Source: a virus
Lineage: Duplodnaviria > Heunggongvirae > Uroviricota > Caudoviricetes
DNA length: 11,141 nucleotides
Virus record (IMG/VR): IMGVR_UViG_2563366948_000006
Span: 1-11,141 of that record
Direction: 5' to 3' (one strand)
Made by a program: the position numbers and the translations under genes. This document shows positions 1,514 through 11,141 of the stretch, in pieces; position 1 is the stretch's first letter, and each line of letters begins with the position of its first letter. The notes below the pieces were generated by a model. The model was not told the DNA's origin. It saw nothing but the letters and a program-made list of their open reading frames with translations, and made no database searches.

Positions 1514-3243
1514 AGAATTAAGAGAGCATCGTCCGGATCAAGAGATGAGAGGAAATCGTCGGGTTCTTTGAGCATTGCCCGACCGATCGCCATAATCAGT
1601 GCAACCGCACCATCGATTTTGTTTTCCGCCTGCTCCTTGACAGGCTTCACCACATCATCGTTACCCGGAATGGTTTTGCCGACCACGTTGCCGATACACC
1701 AGGTCATGATGGGATTGCCATCATGATGAAAGCGCCCCGATTCAATTGCCGCTTCCAGCTCTTTCATCGGGTCGGACATGTTGGTGTAGTTCTGAATGAT
1801 GGTGACGGGGTTCAGGTCTTCATCAGCAAGGTCATGTGACAGCCCGGTCGCCCCGAAGGGGTCGATGGGTGACTCGCTGACCGGGCTGATTTTGTTCGCC
1901 GCTTTGGCCTCCTCGAGGATGTAGCGATAATCCACCTCCGCACCATCGGTAACGGTCAGAACCCCCATCTCCACCCATTTCTGAAAGCGTTCGGCTGTCC
2001 GGCGATCTTCATTTTTCTCGACGCTGTACACCGTGTCATACGGTACCCAGAAGCGCGGAGCCACACTGTAGTAATGCGTTTTACCGTCAATCTCGCGGGT
2101 ATAAAGTCGCGCCATACTGTTCATATCCAGCTTACGCGCCAGGTCAAAGGCCAGGATGCACGGTTGCCCCTCGAACTGCTCAAGGGACAGTGATTTATCC
2201 TCGCAGCTCTGCCAGCTCACCAGGTTGAAATACGCCGAACGTGCCGACACCCAGATATTGAGGTGTTTTGTTTTAAAGACGTTTGCCAGACGGGCGTTAT
2301 TTTTCGCACGCTGCTGCTGACTTAACAAAAATTCGCGATAAACCGACACGCCAATATTTGGATTGGCTTTTTCCAGCACCTGCGGGTCGATCCAGTCGTC
2401 ACCTTCATCAACGGTATAGATGATCCCGAACAGTTCATCGTTAGGCACCGAGCCGTTGAGCATCTCGATGACTTCCCGCCGCTTGTCGTAGCACGGCCCC
2501 TCAATGTTGTACCCGGCGGTGGTGATGGCCCACATCAGTGGCTGACGTCGCGCCCCCATCCCGGTAAGCATTGTGGTATAAAGCGCATCGGTGGCATGCT
2601 CGTGATATTCATCAACCACGGCACAGTGGGGTGATGAACCATCACCGGGGTTGCCGATCAGCGGTTCAAACCGCGCGCCATCCTCCGGACGGTTCATGTT
2701 TGAGGCGTTAACCTCAATCCCGAACGCTTCCGTCAGCATGGGTGTGCGTTTACACATCAGTCGCGCCGGACGAAAAACTTCCCACGCCTGTTTCTCTGTC
2801 GTGGCACCGGAATACACTTCCGCGCCAAACTCGTTATCACAGGCAAAACAATACAGGGCAACACCGGCAGAGATTGCCGATTTGCCGTTCTTACGGGGGA
2901 TTTCGGTATACACCTCCCGGAAGCGGCGCAGCCGGGAGCCTTTATTGACCCAGCCAAACGCACAGCAGATCACAAAGAGCTGCCACGGCTCCAGCGTGAT
3001 GGGCATCCGTTTGAATGCCCACTCCCCCTTGGTGTGTGGCAACAGCTGAATAAATTTCGCGGCCCGTTCAGCCAGGTCCTTGTCGAAGCGGTAACGAAAC
3101 GACTTACTTTTTTCCGCCATCAGGTCATCAAGATGGCGCTGGCAGGCCTGAATCACAAACTGGCAGGCCACAATCTTTCCGCGCACGACATCACGGGCAT
3201 ACTGATTAGCAGCATTTACGTTGGGGTAAGATTTCCGGCTCAT
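1510..3243 (-). CDS. terL: Phage terminase large subunit (TerL, Terminase_1-type ATPase plus nuclease)
   Basis: 577-aa ORF, ATG at 3243 overlapping the TerS stop (ATGA). N-terminus [30 protein letters not shown] and overall length and content are typical of HK97-like large terminases; followed by the portal. Confidence 0.88.
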
Positions 3244-3743: not shown

Positions 3744-3860
3744 TCCTGGTTAAATTTCATTTTTCGCGGGTATAAAAAAACGATGGGGCGGGCAGTCCGG
3801 AAGGCGCGCGGTCGCAGAGATTTGACCTCCCCCTCCCCAGTCTGATGATGACATTAATTA
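3744..3860. other. HNH-TerS intergenic region; candidate cos (cohesive end) site
   Basis: 117-bp non-coding gap between HNH and TerS containing a GC-rich block (plus strand GGGGCGGGCAGTCCGGAAGGCGCGCGGTCGCAG, then GACCTCCCCCTCCCCAG). In HK97-type phages cos lies between the HNH gene and terS. Exact cut sites cannot be read from sequence. Confidence 0.3.
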
Positions 3861-4211
3861 TCACTTGAGCCGCTCACGCGCGGTCTTCGCTGCGTGACAC
3901 GACCAGCACAGGCTTTCAAGGTTGCTGTCTTCATCAGTACCGCCGTGGGCCTTCGCCTTGATGTGGTCCACGCAGGACGCCTGCTTCACTATCGCCTGCC
4001 GTAGATGGTTCTGACACAGCCCTTTGTCGCGCTTAAGTATCCGCTCCCGGATGACTTCCCACTTTGTTCCGTATCCTCGCTGCTGCCGTGATTGACCAGG
4101 CTTGTAGGACTTCCAGCCTTCACCTTTGTGATTTTCACAGTAGCCAGATGGGTCTGTTGTGGTGTTGCGACAGCCGCGAACACGGCAAGCCTTTGGTGTG
4201 CGCGGTGGCAT
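3861..4211 (-). CDS. HNH endonuclease (packaging-associated)
   Basis: ATG at 4211 with GGGGAG upstream; 116 aa; cysteine-rich N-terminus (CRVRGCRN...CENH) and HNH core CQNH...VDHIKAKAHGGTDEDSNLESLCWSCHAAKT; located immediately upstream of TerS. The track ORF starts 13 codons earlier at a GTG. Confidence 0.82.
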   Translation of the reverse strand: MPPRTPKACRVRGCRNTTTDPSGYCENHKGEGWKSYKPGQSRQQRGYGTKWEVIRERILKRDKGLCQNHLRQAIVKQASCVDHIKAKAHGGTDEDSNLESLCWSCHAAKTARERLK

Positions 4212-4274
4212 ATTCACTCCCCAAAAAACGTATAGCATTATCGCAGACACTTAATGAATGCCTGCTGAATGCCA

Positions 4275-4472
4275 CTAATCGTCGAGTTGCAATACACCGT
4301 GCTCAAGTGACTCTGAGTAAGCGATCAGCCCTGTGTATTCAGGGATAATCTCGCCATCATCCGCTTCGAATTCCGGGATTGTACCAGTGGTGATGGTGTA
4401 TTGGGGCTGACCATCTTCTTTCGCGAATGCTGCTAGGTCTTCAATCTGCTTAGCTGTAAGAACTACTGTCAT
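4275..4472 (-). CDS. Small highly acidic protein (65 aa), function unknown
   Basis: ATG at 4472 with GAGGT 7 nt upstream (the track start at 4478 is an ATG two codons earlier). Translation MTVVLTAKQIEDLAAFAKEDGQPQYTITTGTIPEFEADDGEIIPEYTGLIAYSESLEHGVLQLDD has about 14 D/E versus 2 K and no R. Confidence 0.55.
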   Translation of the reverse strand: MTVVLTAKQIEDLAAFAKEDGQPQYTITTGTIPEFEADDGEIIPEYTGLIAYSESLEHGVLQLDD

Positions 4473-4490
4473 GCTCATACCTCAGTTGTT

Positions 4491-4513
4491 AAAAAGCCCC
4501 GCTATTGCGAGGC
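4491..4513 (-). terminator. Rho-independent terminator downstream of the moron membrane-protein gene
   Basis: Minus-strand RNA would read GCCUCGC-AAUA-GCGGGGC followed by UUUUU (7-bp stem with one G-U pair, 4-nt loop, U-tract), 24 nt after the stop of ORF 4537..4812. Confidence 0.55.
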
Positions 4514-5415: not shown

Positions 5416-6029
5416 ACCAGCAACGCCGCCCGCGCTTTGTTATAACGACTATTTCTGTCAGCCAGTCCATTCTGGCCACCGTTGATGATCTGCGTTACAC
5501 GGACAACATCACCTGAATACATCAGACAACCACGTAATGTGAAATACCATGCAGCAGAACGGGCTGCATGTTTCTCCTGTGTCAGCAACTCTGGTGTGCT
5601 GATCAGATCCAACTTCAGCGCCGCACCGCATTTGGCGTAGTTCTCGCGGCCGGTGATTTGAAGCAGGCCACGACCGCGATATTTCCAGCCGTCACCCTGG
5701 CTGTTATTCCCCATGCGGTCACCATAAACCAGATTGGCTATTTGCGGCTGGTGGGCTACCTGCTTACCATCGACACGCCCCAGCATTTCACACTGATAAG
5801 GCGTCAGGCGTTTACTAAAGGTTTTCTTCAGCCCGTCTACCGAGTAGTTGAAGCTTTCCACCAGCGAGGTAAAACCAGCAGATTCATGCCCAACTTGTGC
5901 AATGAACATGGCCTGATCGTTAACTGCTGTGATTCCAAACTCTTTCATTGCAGCATCAATGTGCGGAAACCAGCGCGCAGCCAGCCCGGCGCTAATACCA
6001 GCCGCCTTTTGAAATAATTGTTGGTTCAT
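5412..6029 (-). CDS. Endolysin, glycoside hydrolase family 19 (chitinase-like lysozyme)
   Basis: 205 aa with GH19-type blocks [35 protein letters not shown] and AAWYFTL; start ATG overlaps the upstream holin stop (TAATG); followed by Rz/Rz1. Confidence 0.85.
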
Positions 6030-6310
6030 TAGTGCCTCAGATGATCAACCAGACGTGCAACGTTGCCTCTGACGGCCACCAGCACGGAAAGAAAAATAGT
6101 GTTCGCCACGATAATGGGCCATGAGGAATGGGGATAAATCCCACAGAGATAGGCCAACGGAACAGCACTGTATGTAACAGTAATCAGCCAGGCTAAACGT
6201 GAAACCCAAGGACGATGCCGCGAATAACCACGACGATAAAACATCAGAGTAATAACAACACAAGCACATAACAGCGCATTTATAGTTGCTGTCGGGTCAT
6301 TTAGCTCCAC
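6029..6310 (-). CDS. Putative holin (93 aa, three predicted TM helices)
   Basis: GTG start at 6310 with GGAGG 5 nt upstream; hydrophobic segments INALLCACVVITLMFY, LAWLITVTYSAVPLAYLCGIY and WPIIVANTIFLSVLVAV; charged C-terminus; immediately upstream of, and coupled to, the endolysin gene. Confidence 0.55.
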   Translation of the reverse strand: MELNDPTATINALLCACVVITLMFYRRGYSRHRPWVSRLAWLITVTYSAVPLAYLCGIYPHSSWPIIVANTIFLSVLVAVRGNVARLVDHLRH

Positions 6311-6626
6311 CTGAACCTCCCCGGCGCGTTATGAGCGCCACCAGCGAGCCGATATCCTGATTATTCAGGAACGTCAGGATTTTAACGGCTAAAGCAGAGA
6401 CGATTACGGCACCAATAGCATCCAGAGGTTTATCACTGTATCCGGTCAAGTGCGCCAGCTTGGAGCCAACCAACCCAGAGCAAAGGATCCCGGCAATATA
6501 TGACACGATAAAATATGCCAGTCGGCGCGATGCACTCAGATCTGCTGCTGTTGCTATGTAGAATACCGTCCTTTTTACAAAACAGAGAAGAGCATCACCG
6601 GACGACGGGCTCATAACCCAATCCAT
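6297..6626 (-). CDS. Holin-like membrane protein (start uncertain: GTG 6641, ATG 6626 or ATG 6614)
   Basis: At least two TM segments (LAYFIVSYIAGILCSGLVG, LDAIGAVIVSALAVKILTFL) and a charged C-terminal tail QDIGSLVALITRRGGSGGAK that resembles, from recall, the C-terminus of lambda S; two closely spaced in-frame Met codons (MDWVMSPSS) could allow a dual-start arrangement. No strong SD at any candidate start. Confidence 0.5.
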   Translation of the reverse strand: MDWVMSPSSGDALLCFVKRTVFYIATAADLSASRRLAYFIVSYIAGILCSGLVGSKLAHLTGYSDKPLDAIGAVIVSALAVKILTFLNNQDIGSLVALITRRGGSGGAK

Positions 6627-6665
6627 CCGGGCGGCTGCCACCGCAGGTGTTCTTCTCTGTTTTGT
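6577..6665. repeat. 18-bp inverted repeat (17/18 match) separated by 53 bp at the lysis / early-operon junction
   Basis: Plus strand 6577-6594 ACAAAACAGAGAAGAGCA; the reverse complement of 6648-6665 is ACAAAACAGAGAAGAACA (15 bp perfect core). Left arm lies in the 5' end of the holin-like ORF, right arm in the divergent intergenic region upstream of yfdP. Confidence 0.7.
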
Positions 6666-6713
6666 GGAGAAACTAATCGGCCTTGCAGGGTCGATATGAT
6701 GAGGAGCAGCAAA

Positions 6714-7076
6714 ATGGCTAGCGAACGCAGTACTGATGTGCAGGCATTTATCGGGGAGCTGGACGGCGGCGTATTTGAAACCAAAATCGGCGCAGTTCTC
6801 AGTGAAGTCGCTTCCGGTGTGATGAACACGAAAACCAAAGGTAAGGTCTCACTCAACCTGGAAATCGAACCATTTGATGAGAACCGTGTGAAAATCAAAC
6901 ACAAACTCTCATATGTTCGCCCGACTAACCGCGGGAAAATTTCCGAAGAAGACACCACCGAAACGCCGATGTATGTCAATCGCGGTGGTCGCCTGACTAT
7001 TCTGCAGGAAGACCAGGGACAGTTACTGACTCTTGCCGGTGAACCTGACGGAAAACTCCGCGCAGCAGGTCGTTAA
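6714..7076 (+). CDS. yfdP: YfdP-like conserved prophage early protein (120 aa), function unknown
   Basis: ATG at 6714 with GAGGAG upstream gives 120 aa (MASERSTDVQAFIGELDGG...); first gene of a same-strand operon whose sizes (120, 274, 178, 120 aa) and order match E. coli K-12 KplE1 yfdP-yfdQ-yfdR-yfdS as I recall them. Confidence 0.55.
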   Translation: MASERSTDVQAFIGELDGGVFETKIGAVLSEVASGVMNTKTKGKVSLNLEIEPFDENRVKIKHKLSYVRPTNRGKISEEDTTETPMYVNRGGRLTILQEDQGQLLTLAGEPDGKLRAAGR

Positions 7077-7141
7077 TATCGTTTTTAATTAACTGATTAT
7101 TTATCTCATCACTGAATATCTTTATATAGTGAGGACTTATT

Positions 7142-7966
7142 ATGTCTCAGAACTTAGACGCAACCGCAATTAATCAAATCCATGCCCTTATTTCTGCTCA
7201 GGGTGTTAATGAAATTATCAGTAAGATTGGTGCCGATGCTGTGGCATTGCCTGAGAATTTCCGCATTCATGATCTGGAAAAATTTAATTTAAATCGCTTC
7301 CGTTTCCGTGGTGCGCTTTCCACTGCCAGCATCGATGACTTTACCCGTTATTCTAAAGATCTTGCAGATGAAGGCACCCGCTGCTTTATCGATGCTGATA
7401 ATATGCGTGCCGTCAGTGTGCTTAACCTGGGTACTATTGATGAACCAGGTCACGCAGATAACACCGCCACACTCAAACTGAAAAAGACAGCACCGTTCTC
7501 TGCTCTGTTGTCTGTTAACGGCGAGCGTAACTCCCAGAAGTCACTGGCAGAATGGATTGAAGACTGGGCCGACTATCTTGTGGGCTTTGATGCTAATGGT
7601 GACGCTATTCAGGCAACAAAAGCGGCTGCGGCTGTCCGTAAAATCACGATTGAAGCAAACCAGACCGCTGATTTTGAAGATAATGACTTCAGCGGCAAAC
7701 GCTCCCTGATGGAGTCTGTCGAAGCGAAGACCAAAGACATTATGCCAGTGGCATTTGAATTTAAATGCGTTCCGTTTGAAGGTCTGAAAGAACGTCCGTT
7801 TAAATTACGCCTCAGTATTATCACTGGCGATCGTCCTGTACTGGTTCTGCGCATTATTCAGCTGGAGGCGGTGCAGGAAGAAATGGCTAACGAATTTCGT
7901 GATCTGCTTGTTGAGAAATTCAAGGACAGCAAAGTAGAAACCTTTATTGGTACTTTCACCGCCTGA
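7142..7966 (+). CDS. yfdQ: YfdQ-like protein (DUF2303-type, 274 aa), function unknown
   Basis: ATG at 7142 with GAGGA 7 nt upstream; 274 aa beginning [20 protein letters not shown]; size and position match K-12 YfdQ from recall. Confidence 0.6.
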
Positions 7967-7978
7967 TTTCATTACTGC

Positions 7979-8000
7979 AAATGCCCCTGCGGGGGCATTT
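7979..8000 (+). terminator. Perfect 9-bp stem-loop between yfdQ and yfdR (possible partial terminator or attenuator)
   Basis: AAATGCCCC-TGCG-GGGGCATTT starts 13 nt after the yfdQ stop; GC core with an AU-rich 3' side (AUUUAU) but no long U-tract. Confidence 0.35.
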
Positions 8001-8093
8001 ATGGAAACGTAATTTACTCAATAATCGCCGGATGGTGAGGGATTCTTTTTACCAGAATTCAGCGCGGTGCAGCGCATATACGTGGAGAACAAA

Positions 8094-8630
8094 ATGTCAT
8101 TTATTAAAACTTTTTCCGGGAAGCATTTTTATTATGACAGGATAAATAAAGACGACATCGATATTAACGATATCGCGGTTTCCCTTTCAAATATCTGTCG
8201 CTTTGCCGGTCATCTTTCGCACTTCTACAGCGTCGCCCAACATGCGGTTCTTTGCAGCCAGCTGGTGCCGCAGGAATTTGCTTTTGAAGCGTTAATGCAT
8301 GATGCAACAGAAGCGTATTGCCAAGACATCCCCGCACCACTGAAACGACTTCTTCCTGACTATAAACGGATGGAAGAAAAAATAGACGCCGTAATCCGTG
8401 AGAAATACGGGTTACCTCCTGTTATGAGCACGCCAGTGAAATATGCCGATCTCATCATGCTGGCAACCGAACGCCGCGATCTCGGGCTTGATGATGGCTC
8501 TTTCTGGCCTGTGCTGGAAGGTATCCCGGCAACAGAGATGTTCAACGTGATTCCACTGGCTCCAGGCCATGCCTACGGGATGTTTATGGAACGCTTTAAC
8601 GAATTATCGGAGTTACGCAAATGCGCATGA
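8094..8630 (+). CDS. yfdR: HD-domain phosphohydrolase, YfdR-like (178 aa)
   Basis: ATG at 8094 with GGAGAA upstream gives 178 aa; HD-domain metal-binding signature visible (GHLSHFYSVAQH ... LMHDATEAY). The track ORF starts 9 codons earlier at 8067. Confidence 0.7.
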   Translation: MSFIKTFSGKHFYYDRINKDDIDINDIAVSLSNICRFAGHLSHFYSVAQHAVLCSQLVPQEFAFEALMHDATEAYCQDIPAPLKRLLPDYKRMEEKIDAVIREKYGLPPVMSTPVKYADLIMLATERRDLGLDDGSFWPVLEGIPATEMFNVIPLAPGHAYGMFMERFNELSELRKCA

Positions 8631-9254: not shown

Positions 9255-9461
9255 ATGCTGAACCTCGATTGTGTTCCAATCTCAACTTATTGCAAAGAAA
9301 CTGGCGAAACTCCTGAAGCAATAAACAAACGTGTACAGCGCGGTGTTTGGCGTGAAGGTGTTCAGGTTTTAAAGGTTGAAGGCGTTAAGGAGAGGTGGAT
9401 TGATCTTAGTGAGGTTGCAAAATGGGCCAGACAAAACTGCTCAAACTACCGCGCGGCGTAA
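9255..9461 (+). CDS. xis: Putative excisionase (Xis-like DNA-binding protein)
   Basis: ATG at 9255 with GGAG 6 nt upstream; 68 aa (MLNLDCVPISTYCKETGETPEAINKRVQRGVWREGVQ...); immediately upstream of the integrase and overlapping it by 40 nt, the canonical xis-int arrangement. The track ORF starts 4 codons earlier at a GTG. Confidence 0.55.
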   Translation: MLNLDCVPISTYCKETGETPEAINKRVQRGVWREGVQVLKVEGVKERWIDLSEVAKWARQNCSNYRAA

Positions 9462-10597
9462 CAATCAGGAAACACCGCCAGGGCGAAACGATCAATATAA
9501 CTTTCACCTACAAAGGAGTTAAATGTCGTGAGCCTCTTTCCAATCTGGAAGTAATACCAAAGAACATAAAATACGCCGAGCGCACACTCGGCGAAATTCA
9601 TAATAAGATCGAAAGGGGAACATTCATTTATGCGGAATATTTTCCCCGTTCTGCTCGTTTGAAAATTTTTGGTAATGCTGCTGCAGGCAAAACGGTAAAA
9701 ATGTACCTGGACGAATACCTTGAAATCTGCGAAACGAGAAAACTTTCACCCTCTACGATTGGTGGTTATAAAAAATGCCGTAGTGCGTTAGCCTCACTCC
9801 ACATTTGCCCTGCAAGTGAATTAACACCAGCAATCCTGAAAGCGTGGATTCAAAGCCAGAAAACGACCTCAAAAACAATTCGCAACCAGTTATCTTTCCT
9901 GCGGTCAGCACTTGATGAAGCCGTAACCGATGGGGTACTTCAAATTAACCCCGTATCGTTGGTAACTGCTTCGCGCTACCAAAGTGATAAGTCAGAAGCA
10001 GAAAGCAGCTACGTGGTTGATCCGCTATCACCAGCAGAAGTTGATGCATTACTAGCAGCAGCCGGAAACAAACAATGGGAAAATCTGTTCCGGTTCGCTA
10101 TACATACAGGCCTGCGTAGTTCTGAATTATGTGCCCTTCGATGGCGTGATATCGACTTTGTTGGAAAAACTGCCCATGTCCAGAGCGCAAGTGTTGTCGG
10201 TGTTATCAAAGGAACAAAGACAAAAGCCGGTACTCGTAAAGTTGAACTGACAGAAGAGGCAATGTTGGCGCTGATAAATCAGAAGCCATTTACATTCATG
10301 AAGGATGCTACTGTCTTTGAAGATCCAAAGACAAACAAACCGTGGGCCAGCGCCGATGCGATAAGGAAAAAAGCGTGGATACCAACCTTACGTAAAGCAG
10401 GTATCCGGTACCGTAACCCATATCAGACCAGGCATACATTCGCCACCAGCCATATCAGCCGTGGTGCGAACCTGTTCTGGCTTGCAGGCCAGATGGGCCA
10501 TAAGGGACCAGAAATGCTATTTCGTCACTATGGCAGTTACCTTGCTGCATATGACGGACATACCGCTAAAAATACTAATGATACAAAACAGGCTTGA
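9422..10597 (+). CDS. int: Tyrosine-type site-specific integrase with N-terminal arm-binding domain
   Basis: 391 aa; N-terminal LPRGVTIRKHRQGETINITFTYKGVKCREPL arm-binding-like region; C-terminal catalytic domain with the tyrosine-recombinase R...HxxR...Y pattern (LRSSELCALRWRDID, NPYQTRHTFATSHISRGANLFWLAGQMGH, RHYGSY); last gene before a GC shift. Confidence 0.9.
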   Translation: MGQTKLLKLPRGVTIRKHRQGETINITFTYKGVKCREPLSNLEVIPKNIKYAERTLGEIHNKIERGTFIYAEYFPRSARLKIFGNAAAGKTVKMYLDEYLEICETRKLSPSTIGGYKKCRSALASLHICPASELTPAILKAWIQSQKTTSKTIRNQLSFLRSALDEAVTDGVLQINPVSLVTASRYQSDKSEAESSYVVDPLSPAEVDALLAAAGNKQWENLFRFAIHTGLRSSELCALRWRDIDFVGKTAHVQSASVVGVIKGTKTKAGTRKVELTEEAMLALINQKPFTFMKDATVFEDPKTNKPWASADAIRKKAWIPTLRKAGIRYRNPYQTRHTFATSHISRGANLFWLAGQMGHKGPEMLFRHYGSYLAAYDGHTAKNTNDTKQA

Positions 10598-10641
10598 TGC
10601 TGCCCGAACAAATAGCCACTGAAACCTGATAAAAAGTTATT

Positions 10642-10676
10642 TGTGATGTGGTTATGTTCGTCATATCCACATCATA
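10642..10676. repeat. Imperfect 15-bp-arm palindrome (13/15) downstream of int
   Basis: TGTGATGTGGTTATG - ttcgt - CATATCCACATCATA, with a perfect GATGTGG / CCACATC core. Confidence 0.6.
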
Positions 10677-10763
10677 CATACTTAAACATAAGGCACTTTT
10701 TACCTTGCAAAAATTCGAACCAAGCATATATGTTATAGGTGAACTTGGTACTCAGGCAGCTGT

Positions 10764-10775
10764 CCTAGTACTAGG
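10764..10775. repeat. Perfect 12-bp palindrome CCTAGTACTAGG
   Basis: Self-complementary 12-mer in the int-distal non-coding region; possible operator or recombinase site. Confidence 0.5.
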
Positions 10776-10790
10776 AACACGCGGGAAATC

Positions 10791-10820
10791 TTGGAGCCAG
10801 TACGTAGATTATGGTAAAAT
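10791..10820 (+). promoter_or_regulatory. Putative sigma70 promoter (extended -10) for the downstream 82-aa gene
   Basis: TTGGAG (-35), 18-bp spacer, TGgTAAAAT extended -10; flanked by a 7-bp GC-rich dyad (CGCGGGA 10780-10786 / TCCCGCG 10820-10826) and followed by a CCCCG-N5-CGGGG hairpin in the predicted leader, then AAGGAGG and ATG. Confidence 0.4.
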
Positions 10821-10892
10821 CCCGCGCCCCGTTCTGCGGGGAGCAATAAATGCCTCAAAAGGATACATTGGGGGGACTGAAAGGAGGTCTTT

Positions 10893-11141
10893 ATGTCAGA
10901 ACTAGTCATGAAGATGTTTGGGCTGAATGATTTGGTCAAAGGCGGACAAGCCATGGCCGATCGTTTGAACAAATCTGGTGTTAAAAACATCAAGGTCGTA
11001 GGGCGTGGTGCAGTTATTGTAGACCCATCTACTGACCCAGAAAAAATCACTCAGCTTAGGAAAGCAGCTAGAAAATTCGTCGAGCAGGATGCAAAAGCTG
11101 TTGCAGCCGCTAAAGCTAACTCAATGGACAATGACGACTAA
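10893..11141 (+). CDS. Small hydrophilic protein (82 aa), function unknown
   Basis: ATG at 10893 preceded by a perfect AAGGAGG SD at optimal spacing; MSELVMKMFGLNDLVKGGQAMADRLNKSGVKNIKVVGRGAVIVDPSTDPEKITQLRKAARKFVEQDAKAVAAAKANSMDNDD; stop is the last codon of the window; region visibly lower in GC than the prophage genes. Confidence 0.6.
   Translation: MSELVMKMFGLNDLVKGGQAMADRLNKSGVKNIKVVGRGAVIVDPSTDPEKITQLRKAARKFVEQDAKAVAAAKANSMDNDD

Follow-up and report, generated by a model that had tools for sequence, protein, structure and literature searches.

A long inverted repeat upstream of yfdP is probably the closing helix of a conserved structured RNA in the early-left leader of SfV/ST64B/e14-type phages

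A long inverted repeat lies between the lysis genes and yfdP in an 11,141-nucleotide stretch of a Caudoviricetes record (IMGVR_UViG_2563366948_000006), which in its entirety is referred to here as the window. The original prediction placed this repeat exactly at the boundary between the lysis module and the early operon and offered three readings of it: a pair of operator half-sites, an RNA stem hiding the beginning of the lysis transcript, or a recombination scar that brought the two modules together. We therefore asked what the repeat is, to which of the two modules it belongs, and on which strand, if any, it is read.

The geometry of the repeat was as predicted. Direct inspection of the sequence gave 18-nt arms (6577–6594 and 6648–6665) matched at 17 of 18 positions and separated by a 53-nt spacer, with a perfect 15-mer, ACAAAACAGAGAAGA, as the core of the arm. 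The repeat finder extended the arms to 25 nt (6577–6601 and 6641–6665) at 84% complementarity. The 15-mer is the longest perfect inverted repeat in the window when spacers of up to 100 nt are allowed. In 300 dinucleotide-preserving shuffles the maximum was 14, reached once, and 15 was never reached, which bears out the expectation that the repeat is improbable by chance. In the comparative model the two arms form a closing helix of 20 contiguous pairs, 18 of them Watson-Crick and two G.U, with a predicted extension to about 25 bp. When the repeat region was folded as minus-strand RNA, as had been proposed, the structure was indeed stable (-51.9 kcal/mol, z = -3.5 versus shuffles), but the plus strand folded far better (-61.6 kcal/mol, z = -7.2). 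The features of the locus are collected in the table.

Table. Features of the repeat locus, in window coordinates, with the evidence used to place each one.
Feature	Position	Strand	Basis
Chimeric 5'-truncated first holin ORF	6297..6614	-	Pfam, homologue alignment
Deletion junction with microhomology TAC (imperfectly TACnGTCC, 6564–6571); breakpoint 6563/6564	6564..6566	.	Ends of homology, alignments
Remnant of upstream hairpin (last 5 nt of 3' arm, TACCG) and T-run	6564..6576	+	Native left flanks, ~120 loci
Left arm of repeat, 5' strand of closing helix	6577..6596	+	Repeat finder, fold, covariation (alignment A4 columns 13–32)
Hairpin 1, conserved core	6598..6630	+	Fold, comparison of lineages, covariation
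Hairpin 2 (GCGG/CCGC)	6631..6644	+	Fold, covariation
Right arm of repeat, 3' strand of closing helix	6646..6665	+	Repeat finder, fold, covariation
GGAGAAA, nearly invariant in early-type copies	6666..6672	+	Alignment
Hairpin 3 (AUCGGCC-UUGCAG-GGUCGAU)	6676..6695	+	Fold, conservation
yfdP, first early-left gene (RBS GAGGAG, 6701–6706)	6714..7076	+	Homology

Two familiar kinds of inverted repeat do not fit the locus. An intrinsic terminator would be a G+C-rich, short-looped hairpin running straight into a U-run, and here the right arm is followed by GGAGAAAC on the plus strand and by UAAAAAGG on the minus strand; a terminator scan of 6200–7200 found none at the repeat, and the T-run hairpin upstream is a separate feature. 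Transposon terminal inverted repeats were also rejected: only 49–53 nt, without an ORF, separate the arms, and the flanks are continuous in ~130 native loci.

To which module the repeat belongs was determined by homology. When positions 6200–7100 were compared with phages by megablast, 51 records aligned, among them SfIV, SfV, mEp460, Stx2 phages and Ayreon. All of these alignments begin at 6564 and all span both arms rightwards into yfdP. Comparison of the whole window with 5,426 complete E. coli genomes showed that homology to the terminase/lysis module stops at 6566–6571, and the junction itself was present in none of these genomes. With lysis homology ending at 6566–6571 and yfdP homology beginning at 6564, the two arms fall in the yfdP module. 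Alignments to an intact late module (strain GZ2408P) and to intact early modules (SfIV, mEp460 and HS13-1) put the crossover within the shared TAC or the longer imperfect match around it. These alignments locate the scar at 6563|6564. The boundary is thus not at the repeat, as had been claimed, but 13 nt to its left, and both arms lie wholly inside the early-left module.

The repeat is common in relatives. It was found upstream of yfdP/sb37-like genes in 2,816 of the 5,426 complete E. coli genomes (about half), and it also occurs in SfV, SfIV, mEp460, Stx phages (including Stx2) and the Salmonella phage ST64B. Citrobacter phiNP and Klebsiella Kp4866-6 also carry it, as does the e14 prophage of K-12, whose annotated CDS ymfH takes in the element as its 3' half. 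Viral contigs with the element number more than 240; the E. coli type was seen in at least 120, other early types likewise in at least 120, and a late type, described below, in 94. A covariance model built from the alignment hit the window at 6565–6672 with 122 bits (E = 3e-29) on the plus strand, a strand preference that is partly circular because the model was trained on plus-strand sequences. In the complete SfV genome the same model placed a single copy, located between cI and orf32 (yfdP), and it also recovered late-type copies in Klebsiella and Pantoea phages. A pattern scan of genome contigs returned mostly chance matches in unrelated MAGs; of 12 matches in a metagenome scan, 10 fitted the 20-mer anchor by chance and one more came from an adaptor. 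A search of window positions 6000–7300 against Rfam 15 gave no match on the element at E ≤ 10, nor did Rfam 15 match a late-type copy (contig L164), and the searchable literature yielded no description of the element. The RNA svsR/co293 was considered and rejected, being located at the 3' end of cI and a different RNA. The element appears to represent an undescribed family of structured, probably processed phage RNA.

In intact phages the element sits between cI and the first early-left gene. Ayreon has an intrinsic terminator after cI and then a TTGACA-16-CATAAT promoter, which we take to be pL, and the element starts ~460 nt downstream; in another lineage the end of cI is only 135 nt before the element. 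In every lineage a small hairpin and a T-run stand immediately upstream. The stems of this hairpin differ in sequence between lineages (CGGTACCAG/CTGGTACCG, GGCGGTTATCCA/TGGATAACCGCC, TCGGCGTC/GACGCCGA and GCCCA/TGGGC) and are followed by T5–7. The region of which the window keeps a remnant reads CGGTACCAG-N19-CTGGTACCG-CTCTTTTT in its intact form. Downstream of the element come GGAGAAA and the third hairpin, before the first gene begins with its ribosome-binding site. As context for transcription, the element is downstream of pL in Ayreon and adjoins tRNA genes in Klebsiella phages. A terminator-like hairpin directly precedes the element and may limit how often it is transcribed, which counts against a leader RNA.

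Whether the arms are kept for their pairing was judged from 93 distinct early-type sequences, of which 38 non-redundant ones were aligned. Across these 38 variants the outer helix was 94.3% paired, and the whole structure (outer helix, hairpin 1 and hairpin 2) was paired in 94.8% of cells, compared with 38–53% in both cases when the partner columns were slid. Both sides had changed at 10 of 33 pairs overall and at 6 of 20 in the outer helix, for example from GC to CG in 15 sequences and from AU to GC in 11. One outer-helix position is G-C, A-U or C-G depending on the lineage. The covariation score was 0.187 versus 0.094 for shuffles and was attained by none of 500 shuffles, although template switching can homogenise the arms of an inverted repeat and so mimic part of this signal. 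The pairing is imperfect in places: one outer-helix column (23–116) is mismatched in 30 of 38 variants, and two lineages have two symmetric mismatches. We found 58 G.U cells in the outer helix versus 11 A.C cells. This excess suggests that pairing is selected on the plus strand, in the direction from pL to yfdP, with the caveat that a single-stranded DNA hairpin would tolerate G.T pairs too. Judged by the compensatory substitutions in its diverged homologues, the element is probably a conserved structured RNA.

The element does not behave as a coding sequence. Its lengths (108, 109, 110, 111, 112, 127, 130, 131, 134 and 135 nt) include all residues modulo 3. The minus-strand ORF ranges from 21 to 168 aa in relatives, with frame-shifted, non-homologous C-termini, and is not hydrophobic. 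The plus-strand frame in phase with yfdP contains a stop codon in one diverged variant. Because the lengths fall in all modulo-3 classes and the C-termini of the minus-strand ORF are unrelated, we conclude that the element encodes no protein and that ymfH, SfIV_34 and mEp460_036 are probably misannotations. The pairing is conserved and strand-specific, and the element is non-coding and present in a single copy per phage.

Inside the closing helix are two hairpins. Hairpin 1 has a lower stem of 7 bp, then the internal loop AC/AAUC, an upper stem in which GGG pairs with CCC, and at its tip the loop CUCAUAA (6610–6616). Its top (6604–6622, CGACGGGCUCAUAACCCAA) is identical at 17 of 19 positions to the anticodon arm of E. 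coli tRNA-fMet (CGUCGGGCUCAUAACCCGA), whose sequence was checked at 100% identity in all 5,426 genomes. The two share the three G-C pairs and the CUCAUAA loop, so that GGG-CUCAUAA-CCC (6607–6619) is identical to tRNA-fMet and has the 7-nt loop, U33 and purine 37 of an anticodon stem-loop. The likeness ends there. Where tRNA-fMet has the remaining tRNA, the stem of the element runs via the AC/AAUC internal loop into the 7-bp lower stem. Hairpin 2 ranges from 14 to 41 nt in length among relatives, and three of its four pairs change on both sides. Other lineages keep hairpin 3, which lies downstream of the closing helix, and its loop there reads (U/G)GCAG.

A second form of the element occurs in the late region. 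It was found in Klebsiella phages GZ7 and Chronis as well as in 94 viral contigs, where it stands directly after tRNA-Asn and tRNA-Arg, with the same hairpin 1 as the early type and a hairpin 2 that covaries. Its outer stem is only 6 bp (GGCCUG/CAGGCC) and is followed by (A/G)CCA. In Pantoea phage PA-1 the late-region copy is long-stemmed, and the early and late forms were found together in one contig. Neither form was recognised as a tRNA gene with D, anticodon and T arms. ARAGORN called no tRNA or tmRNA genes in the window and passed over the late-type copy; in the late-type contig L164, only the two true tRNAs were matched by the Rfam tRNA model.

The first holin ORF of the window is chimeric. 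It encodes holin residues from ~6563 downward, whereas its first ~17 codons (6614–6564) come from the RNA element read in reverse complement, the ATG (6614–6612) being the complement of the CAU "anticodon" in the hairpin-1 loop. Pfam Phage_holin_8 aligns to it at profile positions 29–121 of 121 only. The intact homologue in strain GZ2408P (L003, 8916–9302) is 128 aa long, and the window copy lacks ~37 of its codons. These alignments indicate that the ORF is open into the reverse complement of the element by chance and that its start at 6614 is an artefact of a deletion. Strain HS13-1 has the native counterpart of the right half of the window, 99.9% identical over int, with the order cI, yfdP ... 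int, glaH. From the junction alignments, the truncated holin and the native order in HS13-1, we read the window as a prophage with an internal deletion. As reconstructed from these comparisons, the deletion ran from 6563|6564 into the holin gene and cost the prophage pL, cI, cro and Q, its replication genes and the 5' end of the holin gene. A promoter scan of 6200–7200 found no promoter-like site, which leaves the element and the lysis genes without a recognisable promoter, and the element in the window is probably a silent relic stranded without pL. We also considered a mobile island inserted into the holin gene and rejected it: HS13-1 has the same int end beside glaH, and the 5' part of the holin gene was not found to the right of int. 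In the window yfdP is followed by yfdQ (DUF2303), yfdR (HD domain), a DUF551 gene and the integrase (9422–10597). In ST64B-type phages yfdP, yfdQ and yfbR-like genes belong to the early left operon (PMC12315714).

The deletion breakpoint is shared by other prophages. It falls inside the 3' arm of the small upstream hairpin, at CTGG|TACCG, and at least six independent rearrangements elsewhere break at the same phosphodiester. In E. coli EC21Z-063 (L128) tail gene L is joined to TACCG at about codon 4, and in viral contigs L050 and L131 the partner is again gene L, cut at a different interior position in each. Contig L130 has an unidentified gene at the breakpoint, with the same junction in metagenome contig L183. 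Contig L142 is of the reciprocal type, its native left side up to CTGG being joined to the interior of yfdR. In L134 and L143 an 11-bp tandem duplication (CTTCCGGCTGG) ends exactly at the breakpoint. Compared with the parental sequences, the junctions have 0–4 nt of microhomology (TACC, TAC, TAC, TA and none). Left flanks of at least 400 nt were available for 138 loci; 133 of these were native for at least 204 nt, and all five that were not native break here. Three of the events were found by patterns anchored at this site, which may bias the spectrum of endpoints; two scans for junctions at any of 22–25 positions left of the repeat, each with a sensitivity of ~42%, found one junction at the hot spot and none elsewhere.

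An Int-specific secondary site at the breakpoint is unlikely, since the affected prophages carry different integrases, and a pseudo-cos was rejected because neither the late region of the window nor that of L003 contains a similar sequence. Such junctions would be expected if a DNA end defined at ^TACCG were joined to other sequence through microhomology-mediated repair. That end could come from a break made specifically at this site, from a polymerase running off at a nick, or from arrest, whether at RNA polymerase stalled on the terminator-like hairpin or at the folded repeat. Being common to independent deletions down to the nucleotide, the breakpoint offers a way to study how prophages shed the regions for immunity, replication and lysis control and turn cryptic.

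With these results the competing explanations of the repeat can be weighed. One is that the rearrangement joining the lysis and early modules created it, and the repeat is indeed only 13 nt from the junction. The recombination scar of the original prediction does exist at that distance, but the repeat is not its product, because both arms occur together and with the same spacing in the intact cI-pL-yfdP phages SfV, SfIV, mEp460, Ayreon and HS13-1. We regard this explanation as refuted. The proposed search for the 15-mer at module junctions in relatives led to the same place: the repeat is a native part of one module. Operator half-sites are not supported. In the 38 variants the arms change jointly in ways that keep the pairing, and G.U is tolerated on one strand only, which argues for an RNA helix rather than protein half-sites; the arm positions vary yet stay complementary, with G.U exceeding A.C by 58 to 11. 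More generally, the arms could be a site at the level of DNA, bound by a regulator, a recombinase or a replication barrier whose complex would explain the breakpoint 13 nt away. The arms are 71 bp apart centre to centre, and the ending of at least six rearrangements at one phosphodiester beside the repeat suggests action on DNA. We nevertheless think such a site unlikely. Arm sequences differ by lineage while complementarity is kept, and G.U-type changes are five times commoner than A.C-type changes, which a duplex-binding protein would not select. Moreover, late-type copies have an unrelated 6-bp stem in place of the long arms, and no candidate binding protein was found.

An RNA stem on the minus strand would hide the start of a small minus-strand gene, perhaps type I toxin-like, or in the window that of the lysis transcript. 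The ATG at 6614–6612 does sit in a triloop inside a long minus-strand stem, and mEp460_036 is annotated there. This reading has been largely refuted and its chance of being correct is very small: the ORF varies between 21 and 168 aa, its C-termini are non-homologous and it lacks the hydrophobicity of a type I toxin, the G.U excess favours the plus strand, no promoter-like site was found in 6200–7200, and the holin start seen in the window was produced by the deletion. Of the predicted stem sequestering the lysis transcript, the RNA stem survives, but its strand and its target were wrong; the start at the first lysis gene comes from the deletion and the minus-strand ORF is not conserved. Equally hard to sustain is a protein-coding origin, in which the repeat is incidental to the C-terminus of YmfH or to an N-terminal extension of YfdP (SfIV_34). 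In K-12 e14 ymfH is annotated across the element (L127, 2828–3139), and SfIV_34 is annotated as 226 aa. Against this, indels of every modulo-3 length class occur inside the element, the YmfH frame in SfIV and mEp460 is only 49 aa with a TTG start, the extended YfdP frame meets a stop in a diverged variant, and no Pfam family was matched. Finally, the element could be a functionless, decaying tRNA-derived pseudogene whose arms are kept complementary by intramolecular gene conversion (quasi-palindrome correction). The tRNA-fMet-like arm, the tRNA genes adjoining late-type copies, and the rejection of the element as a tRNA by ARAGORN and the Rfam tRNA model are in keeping with such decay. We consider it improbable, since hairpin 1 is almost invariant in phages of Escherichia, Salmonella, Klebsiella, Citrobacter and Pantoea whose flanks are unalignable, hairpin 2 and the lower stem of hairpin 1 covary beyond what conversion of the arms would give, and the element keeps a constant position before the first early-left gene.

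Our data thus favour a structured RNA: the repeat is probably the 20-bp closing helix of a conserved non-coding three-way-junction RNA of ~108 nt in the early-left (pL) leader of SfV/ST64B/e14-type phages. In intact phages the order is cI, terminator, pL, a leader of up to ~460 nt, the U-run hairpin, the element, GGAGAAA, hairpin 3 and the yfdP ribosome-binding site. Read on the plus strand, the closing helix would enclose hairpin 1, with its initiator-tRNA-like top, and the variable hairpin 2. The long helix of the early type may be a substrate of RNase III, having the ~20 bp or more expected of one, and the RCCA-ended, short-stemmed late form may be matured by RNase P. RNase III cleavage uncouples leader from mRNA in the lambda N leader. 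Cleavage here would likewise split the leader from the yfdP mRNA, and would free a small tRNA-like RNA displaying the initiator-tRNA-like arm. We infer from sequence and predicted structure that the element may function as a processed tRNA-like leader RNA.

What a released RNA might do is more speculative. It could serve as a decoy for factors directed at initiator tRNA. The VapC toxins of Shigella and Salmonella, for example, cleave tRNA-fMet at the A38-C39 bond (PMC4105405). If the element is such a mimic, its targets could include VapC, initiation factors and the 30S P site. A joint reading combines an initiator-tRNA-arm mimic, released by RNase III or RNase P and acting in trans as a decoy or competitor, with a breakpoint that marks a site-specific break or polymerase run-off driving prophage decay. 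We hold this combination to be a long shot; if it were true, a break tied to the locus would turn such prophages into defective remnants. The likeness to tRNA-fMet does raise the testable idea that phages make a mimic of the initiator-tRNA anticodon arm. The structured-RNA reading also matters for annotation. In well-studied phages and prophages the element is unannotated or annotated as protein (ymfH, SfIV_34 and mEp460_036), and these annotations would be corrected. For the early-left operon of N-less lambdoid phages, which is poorly understood, it also supplies a candidate signal for regulation or processing.

Several known systems resemble the element in part. Phage early leader hairpins processed by RNase III include the rIII site of the lambda N leader, lambda sib and T7 R1.1. 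Like these, the element has a long, near-perfect helix, about two turns in length, that follows pL and comes shortly before the ribosome-binding site of the first early-left gene. Unlike them, its helix closes a three-way junction with a conserved inner hairpin, and there is no sequence similarity. Phage tRNA-like RNAs matured by RNase P include the precursor of the P1/P7 C4 antisense RNA and the tRNA clusters downstream of Q. The late-type copies are like these in following tRNA-Asn and tRNA-Arg and in having a 6-bp acceptor-like stem and (A/G)CCA, and their two arms could stack into an L shape as in tRNA-like RNAs. In contrast to such RNAs, the element has no D arm and no T-loop consensus and is not called by the Rfam tRNA or C4 models, and the early type has a 20–25-bp stem and no CCA. 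For the breakpoint only, there is a parallel in the deletion hot spots at arrested replication forks (terB). There too one end is fixed to the nucleotide while the other varies, with 0–4 nt of microhomology, but no arrest site or bound protein is known at the breakpoint described here.

The HK022 put RNAs are two-hairpin structured RNAs in the pL leader of phages without an annotated N gene (PMC9378689). They lack a closing helix, are found immediately after pL as well as pR, and are positioned ahead of the terminators that they suppress (PMC9378689). The element is likewise a structured two-hairpin RNA in the pL leader of phages without an annotated N. It differs from put in having a closing helix, in occurring once per genome (as in SfV) and in coming after a terminator-like hairpin. 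The 27.6–30.1 kb early region of HK022 had no similarity to the element by blastn-short or by the covariance model. On the grounds of the single SfV copy, the position after the terminator-like hairpin and the lack of similarity to putL or putR, we rejected an HK022-type put. By analogy, the element would appear to be nearest in its working to the RNase III-processed leader hairpins and to the tRNA-like substrates of RNase P.

We found a breakpoint, CTGG|TACCG, that is common to at least six rearrangements of independent origin; it is identical in them to the nucleotide and located 13 nt left of the inverted repeat. In five of these the deletion extends into late genes, and in one it extends into yfdR. 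Microhomology at the junctions amounts to 0-4 nt, and the far ends of three of the rearrangements fall within ~400 bp of the tail gene L. An 11-bp tandem duplication (CTTCCGGCTGG x2) was also observed on two contigs with differing left flanks, and it ends at exactly this breakpoint.

In the window an in-frame fusion joins the 5'-truncated first holin gene to the RNA element's reverse complement. The lysis and terminase genes on its left no longer have Q and pR', and the second holin gene (Phage_holin_3_7) is intact. In a related defective prophage of E. coli APEC 102026, ISKpn26 (IS5-like) is another route of loss for the same region. One copy sits there between a lambda-family holin and yfdQ; the second copy interrupts yfdT. 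In strain HS13-1 the integrase (Arm-DNA-bind_2 and Phage_integrase) and two small ORFs adjoin glaH (csiD), which points to where the prophage in the window may have its attachment region.

Coordinates of breakpoints and associated features
Feature	Sequence	Position	Strand or state
CTGG|TACCG breakpoint	window	6563|6564	
CTGG|TACCG breakpoint	L128 (E. coli EC21Z-063)	~3007	
CTGG|TACCG breakpoint	L050 (viral contig)	~12075	
CTGG|TACCG breakpoint	L131 (viral contig)	~9707	
CTGG|TACCG breakpoint	L142 (reciprocal-type junction)	~2762	
CTGG|TACCG breakpoint	L130 and L183 (metagenome contig, same junction)		
11-bp tandem duplication	L134	~11850	
11-bp tandem duplication	L143	~4935	
First holin gene	window	6297-6641	-, 5'-truncated
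Second holin gene	window	6029-6310	intact
ISKpn26 copies	L004 (APEC 102026)	7513-8493; 10715-11695	
Integrase and two small ORFs	window	9422-11141	
Integrase and two small ORFs	L171 (HS13-1)	9123-11664	
GGAGAAA; third hairpin	window	within 6666-6695	
ymfH	L127 (E. coli K-12 e14)	2828-3139	annotated protein-coding
SfIV_34	L001 (SfIV)	3833-4513	annotated protein-coding
mEp460_036	L002 (mEp460)	3935-4078	annotated protein-coding
Short-stemmed form	L164	2508-2580	
Short-stemmed form	L170	2509-2574	
Short-stemmed form	L210	14615-14681	

Just 3' of the helix GGAGAAA is nearly invariant. Between the RNA element and the yfdP ribosome-binding site there is a third hairpin, and (U/G)GCAG is retained in its loop in different lineages. 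Within the helix, columns 23/116 of the alignment of 38 distinct early-type sequences (A4; window 6587/6655) pair as G-C in the E. coli type and are mismatched in 30 of the 38 variants; the mismatch is usually C.C and is often accompanied by a G.G four pairs away. This mismatch may be a conserved irregularity of the helix. Three annotated coding sequences, ymfH, SfIV_34 and mEp460_036, overlap the element on one or the other strand; they are probably annotation artefacts, since neither frame nor length is conserved.

In Klebsiella phages the short-stemmed sister form of the element is found downstream of Q, immediately behind the phage genes for tRNA-Asn and tRNA-Arg. The early and late forms occur together on one contig (L210). 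The short-stemmed form resembles a tRNA in its (A/G)CCA end but, unlike a tRNA, is without D and T arms.
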